Source of the DNA: an uncultured delta proteobacterium
GTDB lineage: Bacteria; Myxococcota_A; UBA9160; SMWR01
Assembly (NCBI GenBank): GCA_963832165.1
Contig: CAWHTE010000011.1
Location: 448,001-512,000, forward strand
Reading direction: 5' to 3'
Length of the DNA stretch: 64,000 bases
The notes under the pieces are model-generated. The model was not told where the DNA came from. It worked only from the letters and a program-made list of their open reading frames with translations, and made no database searches. Below, piece by piece: positions 44,483-63,759 of the stretch. Positions within the stretch are counted from its first letter, which is position 1. Each line of letters opens with the position of its first letter. A program made the translations under genes and the position numbers.

Positions 44483-47193
44483 TCGAGCGACTGTCGCCTG
44501 CGCAGGCGGTCGAGCCAGCCGACCAGTGCGATCCCCGCGCCGAGCAAGAGGGCGCGCGCGGGCTCGGGGAAGTAGTGCGCGGCGAACATGCCGTCGCTCT
44601 TTCCGGTCACGAGGTCCAGGTCGCCGTCCGCATCGAGGTCGCCGCTGGTGGGAGCGGAATGATTGCCGACGCTTTGCCCCGTCAGTGGATTCGCGGCGCC
44701 CGTGAGCGGCACGAACTGGGGGCTCGTCGCGCTGCCCGTGTTGCCGAAGTAGTTGAAGTCGCCATCGCTGTCGCCGGCGATCAGATCGAGATCGCCGTCG
44801 CCGTCGAAGTCGCCGAGCGCCGACGTCGATTCGGTGCCGACATCGACGGCGTCGAACGGGTTGGCTCCTCCGGTGCGTTCGACGAACGCCGGACTCGTGC
44901 GACTGACGGTGTTCTCGAAGTAGTTCAACTCCCCGTCGAAGTCGCCCGCGACCACGTCCAGGTCGCCGTCGCCGTCGAGGTCGCTGAGCGACGCCGTCGC
45001 GAACGCCCCGATGTCCTGACCGGCGAGTGGGTTCGCGGCGCCCGTGCGCTGAACGAAGTCCGGGTTCGTGGCGCTGCCGGTGTTCTCGAAGTAGTCGAAG
45101 TTGCCGTAGTACGCGCCCGCCACGACATCGAGGTCGCCGTCGCCGTCGAGATCGCCGAGCGCAGGCGCCACGGCGCCGCCGAACACGAACTGGAGTCCGA
45201 GTGGATTCGCAGCTCCCGTGCGCCGCACGAAGGCTGCGCTGATCGCCGTACCCGTGTTCTCGTAGTAGGAGAACTCGCCGTAGGGGTCGCCGACCACCAG
45301 GTCGAGGTCGCCGTCGCGATCGAGATCGCCGAGCGCGGGTTTCGATTCGGCCCCGACGCTCTGCCCGTCGAGCGGGTTGGTCTGTGCCGCGGCGAACGCC
45401 TGTTGGGGCGCGGACGCTCTCACGAAGTAGTAGAACAGACCGTCGTTTGCGCCAGAGAGCACCTCGCGCTCGCCATTGCCATCGAGGTCGACGATCGAGG
45501 GGAGCGAGAGAGTCCCGACGTCCCAACCCGCGAGCGGATTCGCTTCGCTGGTGCGCTCAAGGAAGGCCGGACTCGCCGCGGTGCCGGTGTTCTCGAAGTA
45601 GTTGAAAACGCCGTCCTGCTCGCCCGCGACGACGTCGAAGTCGCCGTCACCGTCGAGGTCGCCGAGTGCGGGCGCCGAGCGCACGCCCAGGTCGTGCCCG
45701 TCGAGCGGGTTGGCAGCGCCGGTGCGCAGGAGAAAGCTGGGGCTCACGGCAGTGCCCGTATTCTCGAAGTAGTTGAACACCCCGTCGTTCTCGCCCGCGA
45801 CGACGTCGAGGTTGCCGTCGCCGTCGAGGTCGCGAACCGCCGGCGTCGCAGCCGCGCCGACATCCTGGCCGTTCAGCGGATTCGCCACTCCCGTGCGGGC
45901 GATGAAGGCCGGGCTCGCCGGGCTGCCGGTATTCTCGAAATAGAAGAACACCCCGGTGCTCTCTCCCGCGATCAGGTCGAGGTCGCCGTCGCCATCGAGG
46001 TCGCCGAGCGAAGGCGACGACCGGGCTCCGACGTCCTGGCCGTTCAGCGGGTTTGCGGTTCCCGTGCGGGCGACGAAGGCCGGGGCGAGCGCACTGCCGG
46101 TGTTCTGGAAATACCGGAACACGCCGTTGTACTCACCCGCGACCAGGTCGAGGTCCCCGTCGGCATCGAGGTCTCCGGGCGCGGGAGCCGAGAGCATTCC
46201 TGGACTCAGCCCGTCGAGCGGGTTGGCCGCGCCAGTGCGCCAGATGAAATCGGCGGCGAAGCTCTCGAAGTAGGTGAAGAAGCCGTCGGCCTTGCCCGAA
46301 AGCAGATCGGGATCACCATCGCCGTCGAGATCGCCCAGTGACGGCGTGGAGTTGGCGCCCACATCCACACCGTTGAGCGGGTTTGCCGCACCGGTCCGCG
46401 CGATGAAGGCCGGGATCGTCGCGCTGCCCGTGTTCTCGAATGTGTCGAAAGTGCCGGCACTGCTGCCCGCGACGAGGTCGGTGTCGCCGTCGCCGTCCAG
46501 ATCGACGAGCGCAGGTGCCGAGAGAACGCCCGCATCGAACCCAAACGGGTTGGCCGCGCCGGTCTGCGGGAGGAAGCTGGGGATCGTGGCGGTGCCCGTG
46601 TTCTCGAAGTACCGGAACGTGCCGTCGTACGCTCCCGCGACGAGATCGAGATCAGCGTCGCCATCGACGTCGCCGAGCACGGGCCTCGAGAACAGCCCCA
46701 CATCCTGGCCGTTGAGCGGGTTGGCCGCGCCGGTGCGCAGGATAAGAGCCGGGGTCGTGGCGCTACCCGTGTTCTCGTAGTAGTTGAACACACCGTCCTG
46801 CTCGCCGACGACAAGGTCGTAGTCGCCATCGCCGTCGAGGTCCGCGTAGCAGGGATGCGAATGGTCCCCCACGTCTTGAAAGGCCGTCGGGTCCGCCGCG
46901 CCGCTTTGAGGAGCGTATGCCGGGCTCACGGCGCTGCCGGTGTTCTTGAAGTACCCAAAGCCTCCGCTGAAAGCTCCTGCCGAGACGTCGAGATCGCCGT
47001 CGCCGTCGAGATCGACGAGCGAGAGAGTCGAATAGGACCCTACGTTCTGATCATTCAGCGGGTTCGCCGCTCCGGTCCGAGCCTCGAACTGGGGAAGCTC
47101 CGCAGCCGCCTTGCCCGGCGAAAGTCCGAGCAACGCGACGGCCAGCGCGGAGCTCGCCCCCACGGTGCGCAGCACCCACGTCAGTAAGTTCAT
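44479..47193 (-). CDS. Secreted FG-GAP/VCBS-repeat Ca-binding protein with PEP-CTERM-like anchor
   Basis: Signal peptide (..GKAAA|E), 15 repeats of about 57 aa with DLDGDGDLD, C-terminal FPEP-TM-RLRRR. Confidence 0.9.
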   Translation of the reverse strand: MNLLTWVLRTVGASSALAVALLGLSPGKAAAELPQFEARTGAANPLNDQNVGSYSTLSLVDLDGDGDLDVSAGAFSGGFGYFKNTGSAVSPAYAPQSGAADPTAFQDVGDHSHPCYADLDGDGDYDLVVGEQDGVFNYYENTGSATTPALILRTGAANPLNGQDVGLFSRPVLGDVDGDADLDLVAGAYDGTFRYFENTGTATIPSFLPQTGAANPFGFDAGVLSAPALVDLDGDGDTDLVAGSSAGTFDTFENTGSATIPAFIARTGAANPLNGVDVGANSTPSLGDLDGDGDPDLLSGKADGFFTYFESFAADFIWRTGAANPLDGLSPGMLSAPAPGDLDADGDLDLVAGEYNGVFRYFQNTGSALAPAFVARTGTANPLNGQDVGARSSPSLGDLDGDGDLDLIAGESTGVFFYFENTGSPASPAFIARTGVANPLNGQDVGAAATPAVRDLDGDGNLDVVAGENDGVFNYFENTGTAVSPSFLLRTGAANPLDGHDLGVRSAPALGDLDGDGDFDVVAGEQDGVFNYFENTGTAASPAFLERTSEANPLAGWDVGTLSLPSIVDLDGNGEREVLSGANDGLFYYFVRASAPQQAFAAAQTNPLDGQSVGAESKPALGDLDRDGDLDLVVGDPYGEFSYYENTGTAISAAFVRRTGAANPLGLQFVFGGAVAPALGDLDGDGDLDVVAGAYYGNFDYFENTGSATNPDFVQRTGAANPLAGQDIGAFATASLSDLDGDGDLDVVAGDFDGELNYFENTVSRTSPAFVERTGGANPFDAVDVGTESTSALGDFDGDGDLDLIAGDSDGDFNYFGNTGSATSPQFVPLTGAANPLTGQSVGNHSAPTSGDLDADGDLDLVTGKSDGMFAAHYFPEPARALLLGAGIALVGWLDRLRRRQSLD

Positions 47194-47415
47194 GTCGCGC
47201 CGATGCCCGCGCACGAAGCGCCGCGCCGCGGCGCGCACCTGTTGGCGCGTGCCCACACCGTGCGAACGCGCCGATCGCGCGAGGGCGCGCTCGCAGGCGT
47301 GCACGAGGCCGGGGCCCGCGTTCACCAGTCCACTGCGCCGCTTCCGCATCCGATCCCCCACGGCCCGCCCGCGGGACAATGTCTCACGGAAGCGAACGGG
47401 GGGTCAAGGAGAGCG

Positions 47416-47991
47416 TTAGTCGTCCGCGACCACGCGCCGGAGCGGATCGCCGTGCGGCGGCGGCGCCGGTGCCTCGCGCTCGCCTTCGAGCTTCTCGAGC
47501 GCGGCCGCGACGCGTTCGAGATTCTCGCTGAGCGCTTCGATGTCGCTGCGGCGCGGCAGGTCGAGTGCCTTGAACACGCGCTCGACGGCGCCGTGCACCA
47601 TCTCGTCCCACTCCGCGCGCGCGCTGTCGCGCCACCGCGCCGCCTCTTCCTCGCGGTGGCGGATCGCGTCGCGCACGTTCTTCTGGAGCTCGCCGATGTT
47701 CTCCTGCGCGTCGCCGACGCCGCGCTTGAGCGCGCCGTAGAGCACGTCGCCGCCCTTCTGGATCAGATCGGAGAGCAGCCCGCGCGGCACCGCGCGCTGC
47801 GCGCGCTCGTTGTCGACGAGGATCTGCGAGAGCGCGACGTTGGTGATGTCCTCGCCGGTCTCGTTGTCGACCACGCGGACTTCCGCGCCCTGCTCGATCA
47901 GCTCGGCGATGCCCTTGAGCGTGATGTAGCGGCTGGTCTCGGTGTTGTAGAGCTTGCGGTTCGCGTAGCGTTTGATCAGGACGGTGGCCAT
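47416..47991 (-). CDS. PhaR/PhbF-type DNA-binding domain fused to a phasin-like C-terminus
   Basis: LIKRYANRKLYNTETSRYITL..VVDNETGEDIT...LSQI; C-terminal LDLPRRSDIEALSENLERV. Confidence 0.9.
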   Translation of the reverse strand: MATVLIKRYANRKLYNTETSRYITLKGIAELIEQGAEVRVVDNETGEDITNVALSQILVDNERAQRAVPRGLLSDLIQKGGDVLYGALKRGVGDAQENIGELQKNVRDAIRHREEEAARWRDSARAEWDEMVHGAVERVFKALDLPRRSDIEALSENLERVAAALEKLEGEREAPAPPPHGDPLRRVVADD

Positions 47992-48024: not shown

Positions 48025-48501
48025 TCATCCCTGCACGGCCACGCGCTGGACCCGGCGCGGCCCGGGTGCGCGCTGGAGCGGCCCCGCATCCGCGGGGCGC
48101 GGGTCGACGCGCTCGCGCGGTGCGCGCACACCGAGCTCCCAGAGCACCTCGCGCAGGCCCAGGAAGGCGCGCAATACCGGGCGCGCGTCGTCGTCGCTCT
48201 TCGCGCGCTGCTCCCACCGCTCGATCTCCAGCTCGAGCGCGTGCGCGATCTCGGACGCGAGCCGGTCGGAGAGTCCGCCCTCGGTGGTCCAGCCGCGGCT
48301 CGCGCGACCGACCCAGCGATCGATCGATGCGAACAGCGAATTCTCCGCCGCAGACGCGCCCGACGTCGCGAGCGACGCCGCGTCGAGCAGCGCGCGCAGC
48401 GCCTCGAGCGCTTCGGCCACGGCATTCTTCGCGTGGCGGCGCGCGCGCGCGAGCGCTTCGTCGAGTGCGGCGCGATCGGAACCGTCTTCAGCCACGCCCA
48501 C
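48025..48501 (-). CDS. Hypothetical helical protein
   Basis: GTG start with GGAGG-like RBS overlapping the end of the upstream ATPase; co-oriented within the operon. Confidence 0.7.
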   Translation of the reverse strand: MGVAEDGSDRAALDEALARARRHAKNAVAEALEALRALLDAASLATSGASAAENSLFASIDRWVGRASRGWTTEGGLSDRLASEIAHALELEIERWEQRAKSDDDARPVLRAFLGLREVLWELGVRAPRERVDPRPADAGPLQRAPGPRRVQRVAVQG

Positions 48502-49717
48502 CTCCTCGCTTCGCGCTCACGGGCATCGCCTGCTGTTTCTCATCGCGCGCGGCCGGCGCCTGTGAGAGCGCCGTCGCGACCTTCTGGAGTCCCGTGAGAT
48601 CGTGCACGTCGCCGAGCAGCTCGGGCACCGCGCGGAAGAAGCTGCCGCGCCGCTCCGCGTGCTCGCGCAACGCGTCCAGCGCGGTCGCGTCGCGCCGGAC
48701 GAGCGCAGCGTACCGCGCCGCCGCCTCGATCGCTGCGCGCGCCGCCCGCACCGCGGGAAAATTCGCATCCCCTTGCTCCGCGAGAGCGCGCGCGAGCCGT
48801 GCTGTGTCGGGAGATTCGGGGTCGAGCGCACCCGGAGCCGGTCCGTCGTCGGGCCACGCGCGCACGCGATTCGCGACGATGCCGGCCACGGACACGTTGC
48901 TCGCCTCGAGTCGCGCGAGGAATCGCTGCGCCGATTTCACGGATTCGCTCTCGGGGCTCGCCACGAGCACGAACGCGGACTCCGGCCCGAGCAAGAGCGA
49001 CCTCACCTCCTTCGCGCGCGCCTGGAACCCCTCCGACATGTGCTCGAAGGCCATCAGGAATTCAGAGACGTCCTGGAGGAAGCCGATCCCGCTGATGCGC
49101 TCGATCAGCCCGAGCGCGCGGCGCGTGCCCCACTCGAACCAGCGCGCGCCGAGGCGCCCCGCGACCATCGCGGGATGGATCAGCATCTTCACGAGTCGGC
49201 TGTCGAGGAACTCGAGCAGCCGCTCGGGCGCGTCGAGGAAATCGAGCGCGTGCTGCGCGGGCGGCGTGTCGACCACGAGCGTGTCGTAGGCGTCGGAGCG
49301 CGACAGCTCGTAGACCTTCTCCATCGCCGAGTACTCGACGCTGCCCGCGAGCGCATCGGAGACGTGGCGGTAGATCGGATTGTGCAGCACGCGCTCGCGC
49401 GCGGCTGGGCTCTCGGCGAAGCGCGCCACGAGGTCGTCGAACGTGCTCTTCATGTCGAGCATCAGCGCCGAGAGCGAGCCCTCGGGCGGCACGCCGAGCG
49501 CGGCCAGCGTTTCGCGCGGCAGCGGCTCGGGCTGATTGCCCAGCGTCTCCACGCCGAGCGCGTCGGCGAGCCGGCGCGCCGGGTCGATCGTGATCACGAG
49601 CGCGCGGCGACCCGCGCGCGCCGCCTCGAGCGCGATCGCCGCGGCCACCGTGGTCTTGCCCACGCCGCCGCAGCCGACGCATACCACCACGCGGCGCTCG
49701 AGTGCGGGCAGCGTCAC
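48488..49717 (-). CDS. ArsA/Get3-family ATPase, subunit B
   Basis: VCVGCGGVGKTT, TIDPARRLADALG, EYSAMEK, VVDTPPAQHALDFLDAP. Confidence 0.92.
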   Translation of the reverse strand: MTLPALERRVVVCVGCGGVGKTTVAAAIALEAARAGRRALVITIDPARRLADALGVETLGNQPEPLPRETLAALGVPPEGSLSALMLDMKSTFDDLVARFAESPAARERVLHNPIYRHVSDALAGSVEYSAMEKVYELSRSDAYDTLVVDTPPAQHALDFLDAPERLLEFLDSRLVKMLIHPAMVAGRLGARWFEWGTRRALGLIERISGIGFLQDVSEFLMAFEHMSEGFQARAKEVRSLLLGPESAFVLVASPESESVKSAQRFLARLEASNVSVAGIVANRVRAWPDDGPAPGALDPESPDTARLARALAEQGDANFPAVRAARAAIEAAARYAALVRRDATALDALREHAERRGSFFRAVPELLGDVHDLTGLQKVATALSQAPAARDEKQQAMPVSAKRGGGRG

Positions 49718-50689
49718 GCGGCCGACCCGAGCGCGGCGTAGAGCGGCGCGGCGAGCAGCGCGGCGTCGTCGGGGCCGCGCAGTCCGTCGCGCAGGTAGGG
49801 AAGCGGCACGGTCGGCAGACCCGTCTCGCGCGCGATCTGCGCGACGTAGTGGCGATTCAGCTCCGCGCGCGCGCGGAGTGCGCTGCCGCACGCTGCGAGC
49901 ACGCGCGTGGAGGGCAGCTCGCCGAGCGCGAGGTCGTCCGGGCAGCGCCGCGAGGCGCTGATCGAGGTCGGCGAGATCGTCGGGGTAGGGCGGCTCGTGC
50001 ACCGCGTTCACCACGACGCGCTCGATCGCAACGCCGAGCTCGTTCTTCGCGCGCGCGACGAGCTCGACGGTCTCGCGCGCGGGCAGCTCCTCGGCGATCG
50101 CCACGGGCAGCAGGAGCGTGCGCTTGCGGTCCTCGATCAGTGCTTCCACGCGCTCGGTGTGATGGCGCAGCGGACCCGCGCGCACCGCCGAGACCACGAC
50201 GCGCGGCACGTCGAGGAACGTGAGGCTGTGTCCCGTGGCGGGCGCGTCGACGATGATCAGGTCGAAGCGCGGCCGGGCGCCGTCGCGCATCTGCTCGAGG
50301 TGCCAGACCTTCCCGAGCGTGATCAGCTCGCGCCAGCCCGGCGACGCGAGCAGGAGCTGGCGGAAGCCGCGCTGCCGCAGCACCGGATCGACCAGGCGCC
50401 GCGTGCCGATCTGGAGACCGAGGTACTCGCCGAGCGCCTCGAAAGGCTCGATGTGGGTGATCCAGACGTTCTCGCGCGCGAGGACGGGCTGGTAGCGGAG
50501 CGGGCCGGGTCGCGCCGAGAGGAGCCCCGCGAGCCGCGCGTCGGGGTCCACCGCCGCCACGAGCACCCGCTTCCCCCGGGCGGCGGCGCCGAGCGCCAGC
50601 GCCGCCGCGATCGTCGTCTTCCCCGTCCCCCCCTTGCCGGTGACGATGACCAGCCGGCGGTGGTCGAGCGGGCTGGCGGGGTGGGTCAA
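49714..50689 (-). CDS. ArsA/Get3-family ATPase, subunit A; frameshift near 49940
   Basis: VTGKGGTGKTT, PGWRELITLGK, IIVDAPATGH, EELPARET; C-terminus lies in ORF 49714..49902. Confidence 0.9.
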
Positions 50690-50762
50690 GCTCGCTTCTC
50701 CGAGCCTCAAGCGGGCAAGCAGCGGCTCCGAAACGTGTGGTTGGAATGGGGGAAACGGTAGC

Positions 50763-51899
50763 GTGATCGTCGTCTGCGAGCGCTGCAGCACCGAGTTCCA
50801 TCTCGACGATGCGCGTGTGCCCGAAACCGGTGCGCGCGTGCGCTGCTCGCGCTGCAAGCACGCGTTCTTCGTCACGCGGCCCGCGAGCACGCCCGAGGAG
50901 GAGATCGACCGCGCGGCGAGCCTCGCGCTCGAGGACGACCCCACGCCCGGCGTCACCGAGGACCTGCCCGACGAGCCGGTTCCGGCGCAGATGGACGCGG
51001 GCGACGACCTCGTCGACGACCTGGACGCCGGCGGGCTTCTCGGCGAGGAGCTGGACGAGGATCCGGTCACTGGGCGCGGGGAGGACTCCGAGAGCGATTG
51101 GGAGTTCAACGGGGACCTGCCCGCGGAGGGCGACGAGTCCTCGCCGGACCTGCACGGAACGCACGCGCCGCCGATGAACGCGCCGCACCGGAAGACGGAT
51201 CGGTTCGGAGACGAGGATTCTGACGGGAGCCTCGATCTCGCGGACGACGAGCCGGCGGCGCCGCCCGCGCGCGAGCCCGACAGCCCCGTCGACTGGGATT
51301 TCCTCGACCGCGGCGCGGAGCGCGCCGCGCCGGTCGCCGCCGCACCGTCGGGGCGCGTCATCACGGTGGAGCCGGATCAACCGCGCGAGATCGCGAGCGA
51401 GTCGCAGCACCCGACCGGCGCAGCACCGCTGGCCCTGCGCCGTGTCGCAGTCGGCGCCGGATGGCTCGCGACTGCCGGCCTGTGCGCGATCGCGTTCTGG
51501 TACGGGCTCGCGCCCGCGGCGCCCGCCGCGACGTCGTGGCCGAATCCCGCACCGGGGATCGCGATCGAGCAGGTGCGCGGGCGCTGGCTCGACAACCTCT
51601 CGGTGGGTCGACTCTATGTGGTGTCGGGCCGCGTACACAACGTCGCACCCACGGCCGCCTCGCTCCCGCCGCTCGTGCTCGAGCTGCGCGACGCCGCGGG
51701 ACAGCCGGTCGGCAGCCCGATCCCCGTGCGCGGGTCGAGCTTCCCGGGGAACCTGCGCACCGCGAGCGCGGCCGAGCTCGCCGCGGCGGGCGCCGATGTA
51801 CCGGGCGGACTCGCGCCCGGCGTCACGTGGGATTTCGAAGTGGTCGCGTGGCCGCTGCCGGACCACGCGGCGCGTTTCGCGATCCGCGCGGGGTCGTAG
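50763..51899 (+). CDS. MJ0042-type zinc-ribbon / acidic linker / TM / DUF3426-like protein (ZitP/AgmX-like)
   Basis: MIVVCERCSTEF..GARVRCSRCKHAF, long D/E-rich linker, one TM, VVSGRVHN..LELRDAAG Ig-like domain. Confidence 0.85.
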   Translation: MIVVCERCSTEFHLDDARVPETGARVRCSRCKHAFFVTRPASTPEEEIDRAASLALEDDPTPGVTEDLPDEPVPAQMDAGDDLVDDLDAGGLLGEELDEDPVTGRGEDSESDWEFNGDLPAEGDESSPDLHGTHAPPMNAPHRKTDRFGDEDSDGSLDLADDEPAAPPAREPDSPVDWDFLDRGAERAAPVAAAPSGRVITVEPDQPREIASESQHPTGAAPLALRRVAVGAGWLATAGLCAIAFWYGLAPAAPAATSWPNPAPGIAIEQVRGRWLDNLSVGRLYVVSGRVHNVAPTAASLPPLVLELRDAAGQPVGSPIPVRGSSFPGNLRTASAAELAAAGADVPGGLAPGVTWDFEVVAWPLPDHAARFAIRAGS

Positions 51900-53985: not shown

Positions 53986-54564
53986 CTAACGGGAGAGCAG
54001 CACCTTGCGGACGCGGTAGAGGTTCGACTTCACCGCGTCCACGCTCTTGTCGAGGAGCACGGCCACCTCGGCGATCGGCCGGTGCTCGAGGTGATGGAGT
54101 CGGAAGAGCTGGCGCTGCTCCGGCGTCAGATCGTGCTCCGCGGCGGACTCGAGCTGATCGATCCGCTCGCGCAGCTCGTAGTAATCGAGCGGCGTGGTGT
54201 CCTGGATCGCCGCGTCGGGGACGGTCTCGAGCTCGCCGCTCTCGTCGGTCTGGAGCGGCACCGTCGGGTGCTGCTTCTTCTTGAAGCGCCCCGAGATCGT
54301 GTGGCGCGCCACGCCGAGCACCCACGCCGCGAACGGCGCCTCGGCCCGGAATGACCCGAGCGAGGTGAACACGTTCACGAACACTTCCTGGGTGGTCTCC
54401 TCGACGTCGGCGCGGTTGTGCAGCCGGGTCTCGACGAAGCGATACACGCGGCCCACGTAACGCCCATAGAGCAGGTCGAAGGCGTCTTTCTCGCCGGACC
54501 GGACGCGCAAGACCAGCTGCTCATCGCTCACATGACGCGCGGGGGAACACGTCGGTGCCGACAT
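53986..54564 (-). CDS. ECF RNA polymerase sigma factor
   Basis: SDEQLV..G..DAFDLLY, DVEETTQEVF, FAAWVLGVAR, region 4 IAEVAVLL..VKSNLYR. Confidence 0.93.
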   Translation of the reverse strand: MSAPTCSPARHVSDEQLVLRVRSGEKDAFDLLYGRYVGRVYRFVETRLHNRADVEETTQEVFVNVFTSLGSFRAEAPFAAWVLGVARHTISGRFKKKQHPTVPLQTDESGELETVPDAAIQDTTPLDYYELRERIDQLESAAEHDLTPEQRQLFRLHHLEHRPIAEVAVLLDKSVDAVKSNLYRVRKVLLSR

Positions 54565-54726: not shown

Positions 54727-55293
54727 TCAGAACCGCTCGCGCTCCTCGAACTCGGCGCGCTCCTCGGGAGTGAGATCGAGGTCGGCTGCCGACAGACCCG
54801 AGCGGAAGCCCGCCGCACCCGCGCCGTCGGCCGGATCGGCGCCATCGCCGATCGCCTCGATCAAGGGCGCGACTCCGCTGCCGTTTTCGACGAAGCGCAG
54901 CGCGGCGAGCCGGAGCCCGGGCGCGCCGGCGGCGCGCGCGGCGGCGATCGCGGCGGGCCGGAACTGGGAAGCGAGCAGCACGACCATCACCTCCGCGCCG
55001 GGCCGTAGGCCCGAATCGGGTGCGAGCTGTGCCCAATCGGCCACGCGTGCCGCCACCCAAGCGCGCTGCGCGAGGCCCTCGGCGACGAGCTCGAGGTCGC
55101 CGCCGGGACGGCCGACGAGCGCGATCACGCAGCGCCCCTCGCCGTCGCGGCCCACCCAGTCGATCCGCGTGTCGGCGCCGAGCACGTTCTCTGCGAGCGG
55201 ACGCCAGCCCGGCACGAGCGCGCCGAGCGCATCGCGCAGCGCGCGTCGCCGCTCGTCGGGCGGCGGCGTTCCCGCGATGCGTACCTCAGCCAA
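54727..55293 (-). CDS. Hypothetical protein, probable degenerate PD-(D/E)XK (NucS-like) fold
   Basis: RIDWVGRDGEGRCVIAL..DLELVAEGLAQRAWV..VMVVLLASQF follows the NucS-C pattern without the ExK motif; start overlaps the upstream stop. Confidence 0.65.
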   Translation of the reverse strand: MAEVRIAGTPPPDERRRALRDALGALVPGWRPLAENVLGADTRIDWVGRDGEGRCVIALVGRPGGDLELVAEGLAQRAWVAARVADWAQLAPDSGLRPGAEVMVVLLASQFRPAAIAAARAAGAPGLRLAALRFVENGSGVAPLIEAIGDGADPADGAGAAGFRSGLSAADLDLTPEERAEFEERERF

Positions 55294-56071
55294 GGGTCAG
55301 CTTCTGGGCGTCGCTCCAGAGCATCTGCGCGACGTCGCCGAGCGCGCGCGCGGCTCTCGACTGGGGATGTTCGATCCCGATCGGACGGCGCGCCGCGATC
55401 GCGCGATACACGTGCAGGTCGTCGGCGAGCAGCCCGTAGCTCTGCGGCGCGCGGCCCAGGTGGCGCGACGCCACGCGTGCCACGTGCGCGTACGCGCGCT
55501 CGGCCTCGCGCAGCCGGCGCACGCCGTGGATCACGAGGCCGACCAGCGGGTCCGAGCTGCGCCGATAGGCGAGCTTCGCGAGCGCATACGCCTCGCGCAG
55601 GTCGTTCAGCTCGGGTGTGCCGAACAGCAGCATCCAGCGCAGGAGCGGGCGCACCGCCGCGCCGCGCACGAGCCACTCGGGCGGCACGCACACGACCACG
55701 GCGCCGCCCTCGGCGGCGTCCGCGGCTCCCGCGATCGCGGCGTCGAGCGCCGCGTGACCCAGCGCCACGAGGTCGCCCGCTTCGGGATACGACACCTGGG
55801 CGCCGAGCGGACCGCGTCCGGGCTCGGGCCACAGCGCCGCGGCTCCGGGATCGCGCGGCGCAATCATCACCGCGCGCGCGCCGAGCCGCGCGAGCTCGAC
55901 GGTGAGATTCCACGCGAACGCAGCGCGCACCACGTCGCGGCTCGCCACGGGCAGCGTGAGGATCGGCAGCGCGATGGGCATCGGGCCCGTCTCGCGCGGG
56001 CGATCGAAGCGCTCGGAGCGCTCCGCGACTGGAAGGAAATAGTGCAGGACGTCGTCGAGATCGCGCGGCAA
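55286..56071 (-). CDS. Degenerate MinD/FlhG-like protein lacking Walker A
   Basis: WNLTVELARLG, TPELNDLREAYALAK, DLHVYRAIAARRP...PQSRAARAL are FlhG/MinD-like; the P-loop position reads PVASRDVVRA. Confidence 0.75.
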   Translation of the reverse strand: MPRDLDDVLHYFLPVAERSERFDRPRETGPMPIALPILTLPVASRDVVRAAFAWNLTVELARLGARAVMIAPRDPGAAALWPEPGRGPLGAQVSYPEAGDLVALGHAALDAAIAGAADAAEGGAVVVCVPPEWLVRGAAVRPLLRWMLLFGTPELNDLREAYALAKLAYRRSSDPLVGLVIHGVRRLREAERAYAHVARVASRHLGRAPQSYGLLADDLHVYRAIAARRPIGIEHPQSRAARALGDVAQMLWSDAQKLTLG

Positions 56072-56089: not shown

Positions 56090-57166
56090 TCAGCGCACTA
56101 CGAGAACGGAATTACGGCCGCCGACCTGACTCGCGACGCCTTCCGGATTATCCGGGTCCTCGCGCCATTCACCGTCGACAACATAGCGATATTGATAACG
56201 ACCCGGAGCGAGGTGAAGGATCTTGGTCCAGATCCGCGTCTCGCCTTCGGCCTCGATCAGCGATCGCACGCCCTTGTCGGGCACCCAGCCGTTGAAGTCC
56301 CCGGCGATCCGGACGTCGCTCGCGCGCTCGTCGCGGAATCGCACGACCACCTCGCGCGGCGGGGAGAGATCGGGGGCGATCACGTCGCGCACCGCGTCGG
56401 GTGCGCTCGCGGCCACCTCGATCGCGAGCGCCGCGTAGTCGTGGGCACCGTTCGCGCTGCGCGCCACGGCGTTGATCGGCTTCCCGCGACTCGCCGCTTC
56501 GCGCAGCTTCACGTTCTGGCGGATCACGGTGTCGAAGCACATGTCCTTGAACATCTCGCGGATCTCGCCGAGTGTCTGGCGCGCGTAGCGCGTGCGTCCG
56601 TCGTAGAGCGTGGGCAGGATCCGCACGGTGAGCTCCTGGCCGATCCGCTCCGTGAGCAGCGCGATCGTCTCGAGCAGCTTCTGCACGCCGTGGATCGCGA
56701 AGAAGCTGGTCTCGAGCGGGACGATCACCTCGCGCGCTGCCCGCAGCGCGTTGAACGTGAGCAGCCCGACGTTGGGCGCGCAGTCGATCAGCGCGAAGTC
56801 GTAGCGGTCGCCGAGCGTCGCGAGCGCCTGCGTGAGGCGCGCGGTGCGGTTCTCGACCGGCTCGGCCGCGAGCTTCTGCTCGAGCGCCGAGAGCACGATG
56901 CCCGACGGCGCCACGTCGAGCCGCTCGCCGACCGACACGCACACGCGCGCGAGCCGGCTCGGGCCGTCGGGATCTGCGAACACCTCGTAGAGGTTCTCGT
57001 CGAGGCGGTCGGGGTCGGCGCCGAGCGCGAGCGTGGCGTGTGCCTGGGGATCGAGGTCGACCACGAGCACGCGATGGCCATCCGCGGCGAGTGCACCGGC
57101 GAGATTGACCGTGGTGGTGGTCTTCCCGCAGCCTCCCTTCTGATTCACGATCGCGATCACGCGCAT
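56090..57166 (-). CDS. ParA/Soj ATPase fused to a C-terminal CBM48 (AMPK-beta-type glycogen-binding) domain
   Basis: NQKGGCGKTTT, VDLDPQAHAT, IDCAP, TLYDGRT, IRQNVKLREA; C-terminal AGDFNGW..LAPGRYQYRYVVDGEWREDPDN..GGRNSVL. Confidence 0.93.
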   Translation of the reverse strand: MRVIAIVNQKGGCGKTTTTVNLAGALAADGHRVLVVDLDPQAHATLALGADPDRLDENLYEVFADPDGPSRLARVCVSVGERLDVAPSGIVLSALEQKLAAEPVENRTARLTQALATLGDRYDFALIDCAPNVGLLTFNALRAAREVIVPLETSFFAIHGVQKLLETIALLTERIGQELTVRILPTLYDGRTRYARQTLGEIREMFKDMCFDTVIRQNVKLREAASRGKPINAVARSANGAHDYAALAIEVAASAPDAVRDVIAPDLSPPREVVVRFRDERASDVRIAGDFNGWVPDKGVRSLIEAEGETRIWTKILHLAPGRYQYRYVVDGEWREDPDNPEGVASQVGGRNSVLVVR

Positions 57167-57299: not shown

Positions 57300-57767
57300 T
57301 CAGGTCAGCCGGTCGTTGGTCCCGGCCGCGGCCGCGGGTGTGCGCGGGCTGCCATCGACGACGCGCTCGGCCCGGAATGCGTCGACCTCGCGCTGTAGCT
57401 GCGCGATCTCGAACACCCATTCCTGACCGGACACGGCGTCGAAGGCGGTGCCGTCCTTGAAGGCCAGCACCACGTCGCCCGTCGCCACCAGCACGACCTC
57501 GGCCAGCGGACGCTCGACCGCGGGCAGGATCTCTCTCAGTGCACGGATCGACTTCCGAATCCGTTGGACCGAGACGCCGGCATCAATCAGTCTTTTCGCA
57601 GTCTTGAGGGCCACCAAATCCTCGAACGCATAACGCGCGTGGCCCCCGGGAGTCCGAGCACCGGGCGGGACCAGATCGGTCTCGTCCCAATATTGGAGCT
57701 GGCGGCGCGAGATCCCGATGATCTTCGCGACGTCACCCACGCGATACAGATCGCGGGTAGCTCTCAT
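57300..57767 (-). CDS. MerR-family HTH regulator (Rv1830/McdR-like subfamily)
   Basis: YRVGDVAKIIGISRRQLQYWDETDLV.P..RYAFEDLVALKTAKRLIDAGVSVQRIR; no metal-binding Cys. Confidence 0.9.
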   Translation of the reverse strand: MRATRDLYRVGDVAKIIGISRRQLQYWDETDLVPPGARTPGGHARYAFEDLVALKTAKRLIDAGVSVQRIRKSIRALREILPAVERPLAEVVLVATGDVVLAFKDGTAFDAVSGQEWVFEIAQLQREVDAFRAERVVDGSPRTPAAAAGTNDRLT

Positions 57768-57955
57768 GTCCGTGGCAGACCCCCCAGTCCACTGGACATT
57801 AGATGGAAAAAAACGCAGGGACGGACCGAAAGTAAGCCGGACCGGGTGCTCGAGTCAACCCAATAAGGGAGTCGAATTGTCTGGATCGGGGGTCGGCCCC
57901 CGTTCCACAGCAAAAGCCCGGCGAAGGACGGGTGAAGGGGATAGGTTTCGGCGAG

Positions 57956-59212
57956 ATGAGCAAGCCCGAACCGATCGCGCCAGCGGGCGCTCCGGAGGAC
58001 GAGCCCGAGCCGGTGGCCGAGCCCGCCCCGGAGGCCGAAGCCGCGCCCGCCGCGGAGGAACGCGACCGCCGGCTCTGGGTCGATGACGGTGGCGTCCGCC
58101 GACCGTTCATGCGCGGGATCATGATCCACTCTCTGATGGCCCGGGGGTTGCCGTTCGAGGAGGCGAACCGCGTCGCGAACACCGTGCGCGACCGGCTGCG
58201 CCCGCGCGGGCTGGTCGACAAGCCCGCGATCCTCGAGGCGCTCCGCGAGCTGCTCGACGCGAGCCTGTTCGAGGCCGAGAGCCGCCTGCCGATCGCCCCG
58301 GAGATCACGGTGAAGGGGGCGCGCCGGCGCGGCCAGCCGTTCTCGAAGGGCGTGCTCTCGCAGTCGCTGCTCGCGGCCGCGATCGACCCGAACGATTCGT
58401 TCGAGGTGGCGCGCGACATCGAGCGCGAGCTGCTCCGGCGCGGGCTCACCGAGATCGACCGGCGCGAGCTGCGCCGGATCACGCACGCCACGATCGAGCG
58501 GCGGCTCGGGCCCCGCTCCGCGCGCCGCTATCTGGTGTGGCGCCACCGCGCGTCCGTTCAACGCCCTGTGATCCTGCTGCTCGGCGGCGCGGCCGGTGTC
58601 GGCAAGACCACGCTCGCGCTCGAGGTCGCGCACCGGCTCGGGATCGGCCGCGTGCTCTCGACCGATTCGATCCGCCAGATCATGCGCCTGATGCTCTCGC
58701 AGGATCTCGTCCCGGCGATCCACGGATCCTCGTACAACGCCTACACCCACTTTCCGCCCGGCGCGCTCGGCGACGATCCGCTGCTCGAGGGCTTCCGCGC
58801 CCAGGCGGCGACCGTCGCGGTGGGCGTGCGCGCGTCGATCGAGCGCGCGATCGACGAGAACGCGAGCACGGTGATCGACGGCGTCGCGCTGTTCCCGGGC
58901 GCGTTCGACCTCGCGCTCTACAGCGAACGCGCCGATGTGATCTTCCTCGTGGTCGCGGCGCTCGACCGCGACTCGTGGGCCGCGCGCTTCTCCTCGCGCG
59001 AAGCGGGCGAGAGCCAGCGCCCCGCGCACGAGTATCTCGCCAACCTCGACAACATCCTGCGCATCCAGGATCAATTCCTCGAGGCCGCGGAGCGCCACGG
59101 CATCCCGATCGTCGTGAACGACCGCCTCGACCGCGCCGTGCTGCTCGTGATCCGACACCTGACCGAGTCGCTCGGCAAGCGGCCCGACTTCGACGCGCGC
59201 GCGCTGCTGTAA
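57956..59212 (+). CDS. 2-phosphoglycerate kinase-like protein with tandem ATP-cone domains
   Basis: PFMRGIM and PFSKGVL cone repeats, RYLVWR, LLGGAAGVGKTTLALEVAHRLGI..LSTDSIRQIMR, HGSSY, NILRIQD. Confidence 0.85.
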   Translation: MSKPEPIAPAGAPEDEPEPVAEPAPEAEAAPAAEERDRRLWVDDGGVRRPFMRGIMIHSLMARGLPFEEANRVANTVRDRLRPRGLVDKPAILEALRELLDASLFEAESRLPIAPEITVKGARRRGQPFSKGVLSQSLLAAAIDPNDSFEVARDIERELLRRGLTEIDRRELRRITHATIERRLGPRSARRYLVWRHRASVQRPVILLLGGAAGVGKTTLALEVAHRLGIGRVLSTDSIRQIMRLMLSQDLVPAIHGSSYNAYTHFPPGALGDDPLLEGFRAQAATVAVGVRASIERAIDENASTVIDGVALFPGAFDLALYSERADVIFLVVAALDRDSWAARFSSREAGESQRPAHEYLANLDNILRIQDQFLEAAERHGIPIVVNDRLDRAVLLVIRHLTESLGKRPDFDARALL

Positions 59213-59272
59213 TCCTCCGCGGCTGCACTCGCCGGCTGTATAGTGGGACTACCTCGTGCGCAGGAGTTCCCG

Positions 59273-60682
59273 ATGCCCACTCCGCCGGATCCGACCACGC
59301 TGGGAGCGCTCCGGGCTTCGGGCTATCGCGCTCGCACGGTGCGCGAGGAGCTGCGCGTGAACCTGCTCGCGAAGATGGCGAGCGGCGCGCCCGTGTTCAC
59401 GGGCGTGATCGGCTACGAGGAGACGGTGGTGCCTGCGGTCGAGAACGCGCTCTTGTGCGGTCACGACCTGATCTTCCTCGGCGAGCGCGGTCAGGCGAAG
59501 ACGCGCATGATCCGCCAGCTGACCGGACTGCTCGACGAATGGGTGCCCGAGGTCGCGGGCAGCGAGATTCACGACGACCCGACCGCGCCCGTGTCGGCGT
59601 ACGCGCGCGCGCTCGTCGCCGAGCGCGGCGACGCGACGCCGGTCACGTGGGTGCACCGCGACGACCGCTACGTCGAGAAGCTCGCGACGCCCGACGTGTC
59701 GGTCGCCGATCTGATCGGCGACGTCGACCCGATCAAGGTCGCGCAGGGCCGTTCGCTCTCCGACGAGCTGACGATGCACTTCGGACTCGTGCCGCGCACG
59801 CACCGCGGGATCTTCTGCATCAACGAGCTGCCCGACCTCACCGAGAAGGTGCAGGTCGGCCTGTTCAACGTCATGGAAGAGCGCGACGTGCAGGTGAAGG
59901 GCTACCGGATCCGCCTGTCGATCGACGTGCTCGTCGTTGCGAGCGCCAACCCCGAGGACTACACGAGCCGCGGTCGCATCATCACGCCGCTCAAGGACCG
60001 CTATGCGGCCCAGGTGCGCACGCACTACCCGCGCACGCCCGAGCTCGAGCTCGAGATCGTGCGCCAGGAGGCCGAGCCGCCGCGCGCCGACGGTGTCGTG
60101 GTGGTGGTGCCGCGCTTCATGGAGGACGTGATCGCGGAGCTCACGTTCCAGGCGCGCTCGAGCCCGGACGTGAACCAGGCGTCGGGCGTGTCGGTGCGAC
60201 TCTCGATCGCGAACTACGAGACGCTCGCGGCCAACGCGCTGCGCCGCGCGCTGCGACTCCGCGAGTCGGCCGCGGTGCCGCGCATCTCGGATCTCGACGC
60301 GCTCGACACCAGCACGCTCGGCAAGATCGAGCTCGAGTACGCGGGCGGCGAGCGCAGCGAGGGCGACGTGGTGCGCGAGCTGCGCAAGCGCGCGTGCAAG
60401 CGCGTGTTCGACCGCATCGTGAGCGCGGAGGCGGCCGCCGAGGTGGCGCGCGCGTTCGACGACGGCTGGAAGGTGGAGGTGTCGGCGCAGATGCCGTCGC
60501 GCGAGTACCTCGCGGGCCTCGACCAGATCGCGTCGCTGCGCGAGGCGGCGGCGAAGCTCGCCGGCTCCGAGGAACCTGCCGCGATCGCCTCCGCGATCGA
60601 GTTCCTGCTCGAGGGGCTCCATCTGTCGAACAAGCTCAACAAGACCGAGCGCGAACACGGCGCGCGCTACGCGCGCTCGTGA
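59273..60682 (+). CDS. Mg-chelatase-subunit-I-like AAA+ ATPase
   Basis: LGERGQAKTR, EKLATPD, INELPDL, SANPEDYTSRGRIITPLKDR. Confidence 0.9.
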   Translation: MPTPPDPTTLGALRASGYRARTVREELRVNLLAKMASGAPVFTGVIGYEETVVPAVENALLCGHDLIFLGERGQAKTRMIRQLTGLLDEWVPEVAGSEIHDDPTAPVSAYARALVAERGDATPVTWVHRDDRYVEKLATPDVSVADLIGDVDPIKVAQGRSLSDELTMHFGLVPRTHRGIFCINELPDLTEKVQVGLFNVMEERDVQVKGYRIRLSIDVLVVASANPEDYTSRGRIITPLKDRYAAQVRTHYPRTPELELEIVRQEAEPPRADGVVVVVPRFMEDVIAELTFQARSSPDVNQASGVSVRLSIANYETLAANALRRALRLRESAAVPRISDLDALDTSTLGKIELEYAGGERSEGDVVRELRKRACKRVFDRIVSAEAAAEVARAFDDGWKVEVSAQMPSREYLAGLDQIASLREAAAKLAGSEEPAAIASAIEFLLEGLHLSNKLNKTEREHGARYARS

Positions 60683-62182
60683 AATCGAGCGTCTACAGCC
60701 GCTGGGACGGCAGCCAGGACGAGTTCCGTCTCGACGCCGAGCGCGCGCTCGACGCGCTCTCGAACCTGATGATGGAGGGCCTCGACGCGCGCGAGGCGCT
60801 CGAGTGGATGCGCCAGCACGGCTTCGAGCTCGCGGGCCTCGACATGCGTGTGATGGGGCTCTCGGAGCTGCTCGAGGAGATCCAGGAGCAGATCCGGCGA
60901 GGCGCGCGCCGATCTCGCGCGGCGCTTCGAGGAATTGCTCGACCGCGAGCAGGAGCGCCTGCGCGAGAACCACGGCTTCGAGTCGGAGCGCATGAACGAG
61001 TTCAAGCAGCGCCGGCACGCCGACGCGAAGGGCCTCGCCGAGGCGATCGCGCAGTTCTCCGACTATCGCTTCGAAGACGAGGACGCCGCGCGTGCCTATC
61101 GCGAGCTGCTCGAGATGCTCGAGCGCATGCGCGCGATGGAGCAGCTGGCGCGCGACATCGCCGAAGGGAACCTCCAGGAGATCTCACTCGACCAGCTGCG
61201 CGAGATGCTCGGCGAGGACGCGATGCGGTCGCTGATCTTGATCCGCGACCTCGAGTCGACGCTCGAGCGCGCGGGCTATCTGCGCGGCGGAGATCCGCAG
61301 CTCACGCCGCGCGCGATCCGCCGGATCGGCGCGCACGCGCTCGCCGAGGTGTACGCGGCGCTGCGCCGCGACCGGCCCGGCGCACACGAGACCGACGCGC
61401 GCGGCGCCGCCTTGCCGCGACCCGACGAAGTGAAGCCGTTCGAGTTCGGCGATCCGCTCGACCTCGACGTCGTGCGCACGCTGATCGATGCCGTGAAGCG
61501 CAACGCGCGAGCGGCGCCCGGGCGGCCCATCCCTCTGCCGGTACCGCTCGAGGTCGAGGACTTCGCGCTGCGCGAGCGCGACTACAACACCCAGACCACC
61601 ACCGTGCTCCTGCTCGACATGAGCTGGTCGATGTCGTGGGCCGGCCGCTTCCCGGCCGCGAAGCGCGTGGCGCTCGCACTCGATCACCTCGTGCGCACGC
61701 GCTTTCCGCGAGATCATTTCTTCGTGGTCGGTTTCTCGACGCGAGCGCGAGAGCTCTCGCCGAGCGAGCTGCCCGAAGTCTCGTGGGACATGGGCGACCC
61801 GTTCACCAATCTGCAGGAAGGGCTCATGATCGCGGAGCGGCTGTTCGCGAAGCACCCGTCGGCGAGCCCGCAGGTGCTCGTGGTGACGGACGGGCAGCCC
61901 ACTGCCTACTACGCCGGCAAAGAGCTGCATGTCGAGTGGCCGATGGGCTTTGGCGGCGTGTCGCCGCACGCGGTGGCCGAGACGATGAAGCAGGTGCGGC
62001 GCATCACGCGTCAGGGCGTGACGATCAATACCTTCATGCTCGACGACTCGCCGGAGCTGGTCGGATTCGTGGAGCGCATGACGCAGGTCAACCGCGGACG
62101 CGCGTTCTTCACGAGCCCCGAGGCGCTCGGCTCGTTCCTGATGGTCGATTATCTGCGCGGGAGCCGGAAGCGCCGGCGCTGA
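60679..62182 (+). CDS. VWA (MIDAS) domain partner protein; frameshift near 60900
   Basis: N-terminal YSRWDGSQ (GTG overlaps the ATPase stop), LTPRAIRRIG, FGDPLDLD, DMSWSM, TNLQEG, VTDGQPT. Confidence 0.88.
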
Positions 62183-63759
62183 TGAGACCGCAGGACACCG
62201 CGCGCCGGATCGGGGAGGGCGCCGTGCGCTGGCTGCGGCGCACGGCCGCGCGCCGCGCGCTGCCGCGCGCGGGCCCGTTCTGGGTTTCGCTCGAGCTGCC
62301 GTCGCCGCTGCACGACGTGCCCGGGCGCTTCGCAGCCGAGCGCGCGCGCACACTGCTCGGCGTGCTCCAGACGCTCGAGGCGATCGCCGACGAGCCGCGC
62401 GCGCACGGGATCCTGCTCACGCTGCGCGGCGCGCCGGGTGGGCTCGCGGCCGCGCAGTCGCTGCGCCGCGCGCTCGAATCCGTGCGCGCGCGCGGGAAGT
62501 CGATCGTGGCCTGGGCGGAGAGCCTCGATCTCGTGTCGCTGTACGTCGCGTCCGCAGCAGACCAGATCTGGATTCCGGAGACCGGCCGCGTGTACGCGGT
62601 GGGGCTCCGCGCCGACGCCTTCTACCTGCGCGATCTGCTCGCGCGTTTCGACGTCCGCCCCGAGGTGGTGCGGATCGGCACGCACAAGAGCGCGGGCGAG
62701 ATGTTCACGAATCAGAGGATGTCGGACGAGCAGCGCGAGCAGCTCGACGCGGTCCTCGGCGACGAATTCGACGCGCTCGTCGAGGGGATCGCGGCCGGCC
62801 GGCAGCAGAGTCCGGCGCACGTGCGCGCGTGGATCGACGCCGGCCGCTACACGGCGTCGGCCGCGCGCGAGTCGGGGCTCGTCGACGGCCATGCCTATCG
62901 GGACGAGCTCGAGGATCGCCTGGGTGACTGGAGCTCGGAGCGATCGTCGGCGCCGGGCCGGCCCGAGCTCGTGGACGCGCGCTCGCTCTGGGCACTGCGC
63001 GCGAACGCGCGCGCGAGCTTCCGCGCACCGCCGCCGCGGATCGCGGTGCTGTTTGCGAGCGGGACGATCTCGCGCGGCGATCAGGGGCGCGGAATCGCGT
63101 CGCGTGCCGCAGAGGAGATGCTCGCCGCTCTCGCGCGCGATGCGCGCGTGCGCGGCGTGGTGCTGCGGATCGACAGCCCCGGCGGCGACGCGCTCGCGTC
63201 GGACCTGCTCTGGCGCGCCGTGCGCGCGCTGCGCCGCGAGAAGCCGGTCGTGGCGTCGCTGTCGGAGGTCGCTGCGTCTGGCGGCTACTACCTCGCTTCC
63301 GCTGCGGATTGCGTGATCGCGGAGCGCTCCTCGATCACCGGATCGATCGGTGTGATCGGTGGGAAGCTCGACCTGTCCGGTCTGTTCCAACGGATCGGAC
63401 TGGGACACGACTCGGTCGAGCGCGGCGCGCGCGCGGGCATGCACAGCGCCGCACGCGGGTTCACGGACGACGAGCGCGAGCTCGTGCGCAGCGAGATGGG
63501 CGCTCTCTACGAGACGTTCGTCGCGCGCGTGGCGGAGGGGCGCGGCCTCGCGGCCGCGGCCGTGGAGCGCGCGGCACAGGGGCGCGTGTTCACGGGCGGT
63601 CGCGCGCTCGCTCTCGGCCTCGTCGACGCGCTGGGCGGCCCGCTCGAGGCGCTCGCCGAAGTGCGCCGGCGCGCGGGTCTGCGCCGCGCCGAGCCCGTGC
63701 TCGTCGACCTGCACCCGCGCGTCTCCGCGCTGCGCGCGCTCACGCGCTGGCTCTCGTGA
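62182..63759 (+). CDS. sppA: Signal peptide peptidase SppA (S49, two-domain type)
   Basis: YVASAADQI, GTHKSAGE, LRIDSPGG, AASGGYY, TGSIGV, QGRVFTG. Confidence 0.92.
   Translation: MRPQDTARRIGEGAVRWLRRTAARRALPRAGPFWVSLELPSPLHDVPGRFAAERARTLLGVLQTLEAIADEPRAHGILLTLRGAPGGLAAAQSLRRALESVRARGKSIVAWAESLDLVSLYVASAADQIWIPETGRVYAVGLRADAFYLRDLLARFDVRPEVVRIGTHKSAGEMFTNQRMSDEQREQLDAVLGDEFDALVEGIAAGRQQSPAHVRAWIDAGRYTASAARESGLVDGHAYRDELEDRLGDWSSERSSAPGRPELVDARSLWALRANARASFRAPPPRIAVLFASGTISRGDQGRGIASRAAEEMLAALARDARVRGVVLRIDSPGGDALASDLLWRAVRALRREKPVVASLSEVAASGGYYLASAADCVIAERSSITGSIGVIGGKLDLSGLFQRIGLGHDSVERGARAGMHSAARGFTDDERELVRSEMGALYETFVARVAEGRGLAAAAVERAAQGRVFTGGRALALGLVDALGGPLEALAEVRRRAGLRRAEPVLVDLHPRVSALRALTRWLS

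Follow-up and report, generated by a model that had tools for sequence, protein, structure and literature searches.

Fusions of a ParA ATPase to a C-terminal AMPK1_CBM domain are described as the 'ParA-CBM system', clade ConB5, in a preprint (bioRxiv 10.64898/2026.10.19.760177). Its passages on the system call it sporadic, predict a role in immunity from rapid divergence of the CBM, and distinguish a variant with an upstream TM protein from one with genes for an inactive ParA and an inactive REase. For the ATPase part, the accessible text of PMC12462528 reports that M. xanthus ParA carrying R238E does not bind DNA, and that V116, L150, L152, L155, L187 and L192 form the pocket for the ParB motif; a role in DNA binding is described for R189 of B. 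subtilis Soj (PMC10711552). For the carbohydrate part, W100, K126, W133 and N150 of AMPK beta are given as critical for glycogen binding (PMC4032982). Apart from the prediction in the preprint, no ParA/MinD system with a carbohydrate ligand was found in the portions of the literature consulted.

The ParA-CBM gene studied here lies in a window (the whole stretch of DNA that was analysed) of 64,000 nucleotides and belongs to this system, which is already in print with a predicted function (coordinates in Table 1). Pfam placed AAA_31 at residues 1-180 (E 3.8e-49) and AMPK1_CBM (PF16561) at 275-354, the latter with 42.2 bits against a gathering cut-off of 26.8; the ParA-CBM48 fusion proposed in the earlier note is thus real. 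The best PDB sequence matches were ParA/Soj for the ATPase part (8RAY, E 1e-45) and AMPK beta CBMs for the tail (E 1e-8). The AlphaFold model (pLDDT 92) has two domains, a linker disordered at residues 257-266 and an all-beta tail, and the structural comparison with Soj chains gave TM scores of 0.88-0.95 (by target length). The ORF is unbroken, and the fusion, as the earlier note had it, does not depend on mending a frameshift. Both domains were present in 120/120 homologues among the matches listed (71-92% identity, the named ones from Myxococcota or Deltaproteobacteria), in 131/150 representatives of clustering at 50%, and within one ORF in 73 of the 80 best loci out of at least 599 in genomes; the homologues are not always split genes, and an artefact of frameshift or assembly was ruled out by these counts. 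A scan for promoters and terminators at the locus found none.

Table 1. Coordinates of the ParA-CBM gene, its parts and its neighbours, in positions of the window.
Feature	Position	Strand	Remarks
ParA-CBM gene (ParA-CBM/ConB5 family)	56090..57166	-	358 aa; one unbroken ORF, 57166-56090; ParA + C-terminal CBM
Soj-type ParA ATPase domain	56408..57166	-	aa 1-253
Walker A K10-T16	57139-57119	-	within ParA domain
R191, predicted DNA-binding	56596-56594	-	within ParA domain
K220, predicted DNA-binding	56509-56507	-	within ParA domain
Predicted ParB-type pocket V133/L135/F138/L170/I175	within 56408..57166	-	alignment
Pro/Ala linker, disordered	56357..56407	-	aa 254-270
AMPK1_CBM / CBM48-type domain	56093..56356	-	aa 271-358
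W294	56287-56285	-	CBM, predicted sugar site
R327	56188-56186	-	CBM, predicted sugar site
W334	56167-56165	-	CBM, predicted sugar site
N352	56113-56111	-	CBM, predicted sugar site
Partner, FlhG/FleN-fold without P-loop, putative ATPase activator/adaptor	55286..56071	-	profile + fold matches
Partner's N-terminal ParB-like peptide	about 56071-56033	-	conserved
Third gene, weakly NucS-like nuclease fold	54727..55293	-	start overlaps partner stop
MerR-type HTH regulator, upstream	57300..57767	-	25/41 class loci, two Nitrospirota loci
ECF sigma factor, downstream	53986..54564	-	32/41 class loci; link to module uncertain
2-phosphoglycerate-kinase-like gene, divergent	57932..59212	+	fixed-site marker, probably synteny only

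Comparisons within the host's class were made on 121 genomes, each at least 85% complete. Neighbourhoods were compared in 41 class loci (the host's own and 40 picked across families) and residues in 64 fetched class sequences, 60 of which had the CBM. For the multi-phylum set, the 80 best genome loci were taken from at least 599.

The ParA motifs listed in the earlier note, a deviant Walker A KGGCGKT with the signature Lys (K10-T16), DLDPQ and IDCAP, were all found. N8, K10, K15, T16, D37, D39, Q41 and D128 were invariant in 128 family sequences and correspond to the ParA/Soj (PriB1) motif set, and C13 in Walker A together with H43 marks the subfamily. Basic residues at the DNA-binding positions of Soj were likewise recovered by alignment: R191, which we take to be equivalent to B. 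subtilis Soj R189, lies within YDGRT, a motif common to T. thermophilus Soj, and K220 is aligned to M. xanthus ParA R238. Among the class sequences, R191 was kept in 64/64 and a lysine or arginine at position 220 in 64/64. For 8RAY an offset of +19 was used in the numbering, inferred from the residues named in PMC12462528. On the CBM, W294, R327, W334 and N352 were aligned to AMPK beta W100, K126, W133 and N150, so that the Trp/Trp/Asn correspondence seen earlier stands and is joined by R327. The residue at the tip of the CBM hairpin, V348, varies in the class and is F or Y in 58 of the 73 multi-phylum loci with both domains; we assume that it occupies the AMPK L146 position. Because both binding surfaces are conserved, binding of DNA and of alpha-glucan by the one protein appears plausible.

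ParA-CBM is an old family that spans many phyla. Omnitrophota, Planctomycetota, Desulfobacterota, Nitrospirota, Eisenbacteria, Rokubacteria, Gemmatimonadota, Acidobacteriota and others contributed the best 80 of at least 599 loci. Across the family the proteins are about 337-698 aa long, and their linkers vary greatly in length. Within the class the gene was matched in 114/121 genomes, 113 of them with a single match; two full copies in G067 (C39, C75) reflect duplication or a binning artefact. It faces the same 2-phosphoglycerate-kinase-like gene in 41/41 class loci, with an esterase downstream in 37/41, and a quick protein tree required a minimum of 8 changes for 9 host families, compared with 40 in shuffles. 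ParA-CBM thus behaves as a core, vertically inherited gene in the class. The divergent kinase-like gene carries an ATP-cone and was found in 10/10 further genomes searched. A plasmid or mobile origin was rejected on plasmid records, 0/38 of those with a match covering 80% of the protein, as was identity with the chromosomal ParA, since the host genome has a separate canonical parAB. The host's sole ParB match lies on C7 beside the canonical parA, and no ParB CTPase gene adjoins ParA-CBM.

This profile bears on the anti-phage function proposed by Li, Burroughs and Aravind in the passages of bioRxiv 10.64898/2026.10.19.760177 on this system, in which the CBM would sense an infection-related carbohydrate or its depletion while ParA multimerises on nucleic acid and limits the infection. 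The scatter of the family across phyla agrees with such a role, as do the apparently inactive nuclease fold of a partner (on weak NucS matches) and the mean identities across phyla, where the CBM (0.35) is more diverged than ParA (0.41) in 128 sequences. Against it, the class gene is near-universal, single-copy, vertically inherited and fixed at one site among housekeeping genes, and its CBM is not fast-evolving: mean identity in the class was 0.66 for the CBM and 0.70 for ParA, with 24/91 and 56/252 positions invariant. With 19 proteins tested, PADLOC matches were limited to a P-loop, an HTH and a single weak hit, no recognised defence family was found among 50 representatives of recurring-neighbour clusters scanned (80 loci), and a dedicated ParB-like activator suits an ATPase cycle. 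We regard an anti-phage function as unlikely for these reasons; what the class shows is a core-gene profile, with which a domesticated defence role is still compatible.

The ligand was approached through the glycogen genes. Searches of the host genome, which is 89.4% complete, found no glgA, glgC, glgB, GH13, phosphorylase, GH57, GH77 or GT3. The fused CBM is the sole AMPK1_CBM of that genome, and a trehalose-6-phosphate-synthase-family gene and GT4-like enzymes (18 partial matches, assigned at family level only) were present. Of the 121 class genomes, 109 had an AMPK1_CBM, 65 any GH13, 44 glgB, 41 phosphorylase, 32 GH57, 26 glgA and 10 GT3. Counting 108 class genomes as fusion carriers (the truncated G045 included, G020 and G116 left out), 39 had glgA or glgB. 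No glgA, glgB, phosphorylase or strong GH57 was found in 63/108, and GT3 was found in none of these 63; 36/108, including the near-closed G010 and G011, had no match to any GH13 or GH57.

In genomes lacking glycogen genes, signs of a decaying CBM were looked for and not seen. W294, R327 and W334 were invariant in 30/30 glycogen-negative and 27/27 glycogen-positive class sequences. The dN/dS of the CBM was about 0.01-0.09 in close glycogen-negative pairs (G029/G099, 0.010/1.23; G119/G079, 0.029/0.82; G024/G010, 0.027/0.38; G003/G076, 0.044/0.50) and 0.03-0.13 in glycogen-positive pairs. Clean losses of the CBM were seen in G019, G064 and G103 (partners kept) and in G082, a count that leaves out G020 and G116 (contig breaks), G085 (disrupted) and G032; three of the four (G019, G064, G103) occurred in glgB-positive genomes. 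Since its residues are invariant and dN/dS is low in glycogen-negative carriers, the sugar site is kept independently of the known glycogen pathways in the class. None of the genes tested accounts for such strong selection on a site of glycogen type where the genome has no known alpha-glucan pathway, and the ligand in the host organism is probably not classical glycogen.

Outside the class, glgA was found in 31/50 chosen carrier genomes, phosphorylase in 39/50 and either in 46/50, these 50 genomes being taken from the best 80 loci, consisting of carriers only with no base rate from non-carriers, and having no completeness given. GH57 lay close upstream in 9/80 loci (best 80 of at least 599). 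The link to glycogen may be ancestral.

The earlier note had inferred that the protein bridges the nucleoid and glycogen, or that glycogen level tunes a positioning ATPase. The former would amount to positioning or tethering of granules, with ParA-CBM holding nucleoid and glycogen and either spacing the granules or being titrated by them. The retention of all four AMPK glycogen-binding residues fits this, as do the counts in other phyla and the upstream GH57 genes, and the niche seems open, because the accessible text of neither of two reviews on organelle and ParA/MinD positioning (PMC13052382, PMC11407121) contains the word 'glycogen'. The host genome without detected glycogen genes, the 63 class carriers without the glycogen core and the 36 without any GH13 or GH57 match, the invariance of the sugar site regardless of these genes, and the three CBM losses in glgB-positive genomes all speak against it, and the counts from other phyla have no base-rate control. 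Both surfaces of the bridge are conserved, then, and glycogen as its ligand or cargo finds no support in this host, where no pathway genes were found; tuning by glucan is possible at family level, on the 46/50 genomes from other phyla. Overall we hold granule positioning to be rather unlikely. Neither it nor an anti-phage role fits the class well, because inheritance is that of a core gene and the sugar site is kept even without a detectable glycogen pathway.

The earlier note had missed the partner encoded downstream, which carries a ParB-like peptide at its N-terminus; it is through such a partner that ParA systems usually connect to their cargo. Against a ParA profile the partner gave an HHalign probability of 96.5, with the P-loop lost, and direct BLAST against ParA gave no match; its nearest relatives were FleN/FlhG, by profile (E 1e-25) and by fold search, and no membrane helix was predicted (by eye). 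The peptide is conserved in 40/41 class loci. Its class form has drifted from the ParB consensus, and the peptide on the neighbouring gene in several other phyla is close to the start of ParB, including the host genome's own ParB. Among the best 80 of at least 599 loci, 42 have a related peptide on a neighbouring gene and 38 do not, and the bodies that bear it differ, being a dead FlhG fold, a NucS-like fold or a single-pass membrane protein. The peptide pattern was built after the data had been seen and matches 60/3295 ORFs overall. On the side of the ATPase, the M. xanthus pocket residues map to Q97, V133, L135, F138, L170 and I175; five of the six positions are hydrophobic and conserved in the 64 class sequences, and the sixth is the invariant Q97. 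The conserved glutamate of the Soj E-Y-Y motif is aligned to S154. With Q97 at the V116 pocket position and S154 in place of the glutamate, the catalytic details are unlike those of Soj.

Matches of the third gene to NucS are weak: NucS_C was matched on 23% of one cluster, one match had E 0.16, and 1/22 members reached E 0.0023. The E-x-K motif is apparently absent from the NucS alignment. The sole class locus without the partner is that of G045 (L133), where a stop lies at the W334 codon and MerR and both partner genes are lost; it looks like a decaying module, or possibly a sequencing error. Two Nitrospirota loci (L050:8001-8900 and L056:8001-8837) keep the MerR, dead FlhG-like and NucS-like partners and have no CBM.

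The ATPase, both partners and the ECF gene are missing together at the syntenic site in five class genomes (clean deletions in G001, G015, G035, G055 and G105), four of which measure 2.2-2.8 Mb; MerR survives in 2/5. Because the ATPase-partner pair is absent as a unit in these genomes and the CBM has been lost alone elsewhere, the pair appears to be the core and the CBM an accessory. FleN/FlhG regulates FleQ/FlrA. On that model ParA and the dead FleN-like partner could form a regulatory switch that relays a carbohydrate signal to transcription, by way of either the MerR-type regulator or the sigma factor of ECF type. That FleN/FlhG provide the partner's closest structures is in its favour, as are MerR upstream in 25/41 and ECF downstream in 32/41 class loci and the disappearance of ECF with the module in 5/5 clean deletions. 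We nevertheless find a switch quite unlikely, given that in family f11 (9 loci), where ParA-CBM and partner are both kept, neither MerR nor ECF was matched in the vicinity, that ECF does not recur beside the gene outside the class and that MerR outlasts the module in two of the five deletions.

Loci of the Omnitrophota type (L048, L055, L065, L070, L073 and others) share one recurring block around ParA-CBM, made up of an alginate-export-type porin, GH57, a membrane partner, ParA-CBM, a small membrane protein and a Lys-rich protein. BcsQ in cellulose secretion offers a model for an organiser of envelope glucan, in which the partner would anchor ParA at the site of synthesis of a periplasmic or exported glucan. 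The upstream partner of the Omnitrophota type (19/80 loci) would suit this role: it has an amphipathic peptide at its N-terminus, a hydrophobic segment and a domain weakly resembling a CBM, and GH57 (9 loci) and the porin (12 loci) lie near it. Its CBM-like Pfam matches are, however, below cut-off, the class site (41 loci) shows no recurring gene for a glycosyltransferase or for export, and the partner at the locus studied here lacks a predicted membrane helix (by eye); an envelope function is accordingly considered improbable.

Further genes of the window were noted. A MoxR-type AAA+ ATPase gene, a vWA gene and then an SppA-like peptidase gene (by eye) occupy 59243-63759 (+), a block present in 30/41 class loci. 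At 47416-47991 (-) there is a PhaR-like regulator of PHB accumulation with a phasin-like tail, adjoining an ArsA-like pair. The distance between these genes and the ParA module is 5-9 kb, and 14/41 class loci have ArsA in the neighbourhood. The PhaR-like neighbour is a weak lead towards a storage-granule cargo other than glycogen. The pair, at 48488-51364 (-), consists of two ArsA/GET3-like ATPase genes seemingly joined in a 958-aa ORF with an out-of-frame stretch between them (by eye), possibly through a frameshift or sequencing error. A 966-aa repeat protein, FG-GAP-like by eye, is encoded at 44479-47379 (-) and ends in what we take to be a PEP-CTERM-like tail.

We favour, at a probability of roughly 0.45, a housekeeping ParA module that has an activator of its own; its CBM would be an accessory input for alpha-glucan, not the link to a cargo. 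Judged by alignment, the ATPase, DNA-binding and ParB-pocket residues are intact, as is the sugar site, which is under selection, and the adjoining partner bears a ParB-like peptide. By analogy with ParABS and McdAB, ATP-bound dimers would coat the nucleoid non-specifically. Docking of the N-terminal helix of the partner in the dimer pocket would trigger hydrolysis and release, and the dead FlhG-fold body of the partner, together with the NucS-like protein, would hold a cargo or a site. More tentatively, the two CBMs of the dimer would bind alpha-1,4-glucan, namely glycogen where it is made and, in the host, some other glucan, malto-oligosaccharide or glucosylated target; such binding would tether or sequester the dimer and so tie the ATPase cycle to carbon status. 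The module reading gains from the presence of the gene in 114/121 class genomes at a fixed site, in addition to canonical parAB, and loses by the 38/80 loci without a peptide-bearing neighbour, by Q97 and S154, and by the drifted class peptide.

It is doubtful that the core, class-wide ParA machine, with its built-in sugar-binding domain and a dead FlhG repurposed as activator, serves to organise or to sense an alpha-glucan or glucosylated structure that the cell makes without GlgA, GT3 or GlgE. If it did, the module would position a carbohydrate body and be a sign that these uncultured Myxococcota contain a glucan not yet described, and the same machine would handle glycogen in other phyla. 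The anatomy given in the earlier note was right, and its interpretation is partly supported. New here are the evidence against two functional readings in the class, immunity as in print and glycogen positioning as in that note, both of which suit the class poorly, and sequence support for a candidate ParB-like activator. With the ParB-like peptide and the glycogen-negative carriers, the question of function is open to direct testing.

Compared with the systems described, the locus resembles the second ConB5 variant, having the fusion and an inactive ParA-like gene, with the weakly NucS-like third gene as a possible counterpart of the REase; the first variant, with its upstream TM protein, is matched in the Omnitrophota loci. 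It differs from the account in bioRxiv 10.64898/2026.10.19.760177 in that the gene is core and vertical in the class, with a conserved CBM and low dN/dS. The passages of the preprint on ParA-CBM contain neither a ParB-like peptide nor a likeness to FlhG/FleN, and 'MerR' has 0 occurrences in its main text. With chromosomal ParABS (8RAY, 1WCV, 6IUB) the protein shares the ParA fold, at ~37-40% identity, and the Walker motifs, and with Soj/Spo0J and the M. xanthus system, as described in the accessible text of PMC12462528, basic DNA-binding residues, a hydrophobic pocket and a ParB-like N-terminal motif on a partner; unlike ParABS, the module has no ParB CTPase, carries an added CBM and bears the marks C13, H43 and Q97. 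Like McdAB and the cargo ParA/MinD ATPases in the accessible text of PMC13052382 and PMC11407121, it is an extra ParA with a dedicated partner predicted to act via its N-terminal region, whereas in those systems cargo binding falls to the partner, and the ATPase carries no ligand-binding domain. The partner is like FlhG/FleN in fold and profile, and unlike them in its lost P-loop, in its additional ParB-like peptide and in lying outside a flagellar locus. The closest solved structures for the tail are the AMPK beta CBM48 and the LSF1/SEX4 CBMs (PMC4032982), with equivalents of W100, K126, W133 and N150. The tail differs from AMPK beta in a tip residue that varies in the class, in the greater length of the hairpin at 300-319 and in a W-x-P-D that is invariant in the class; it also sits on an ATPase, and the cells that carry it often lack glycogen genes.
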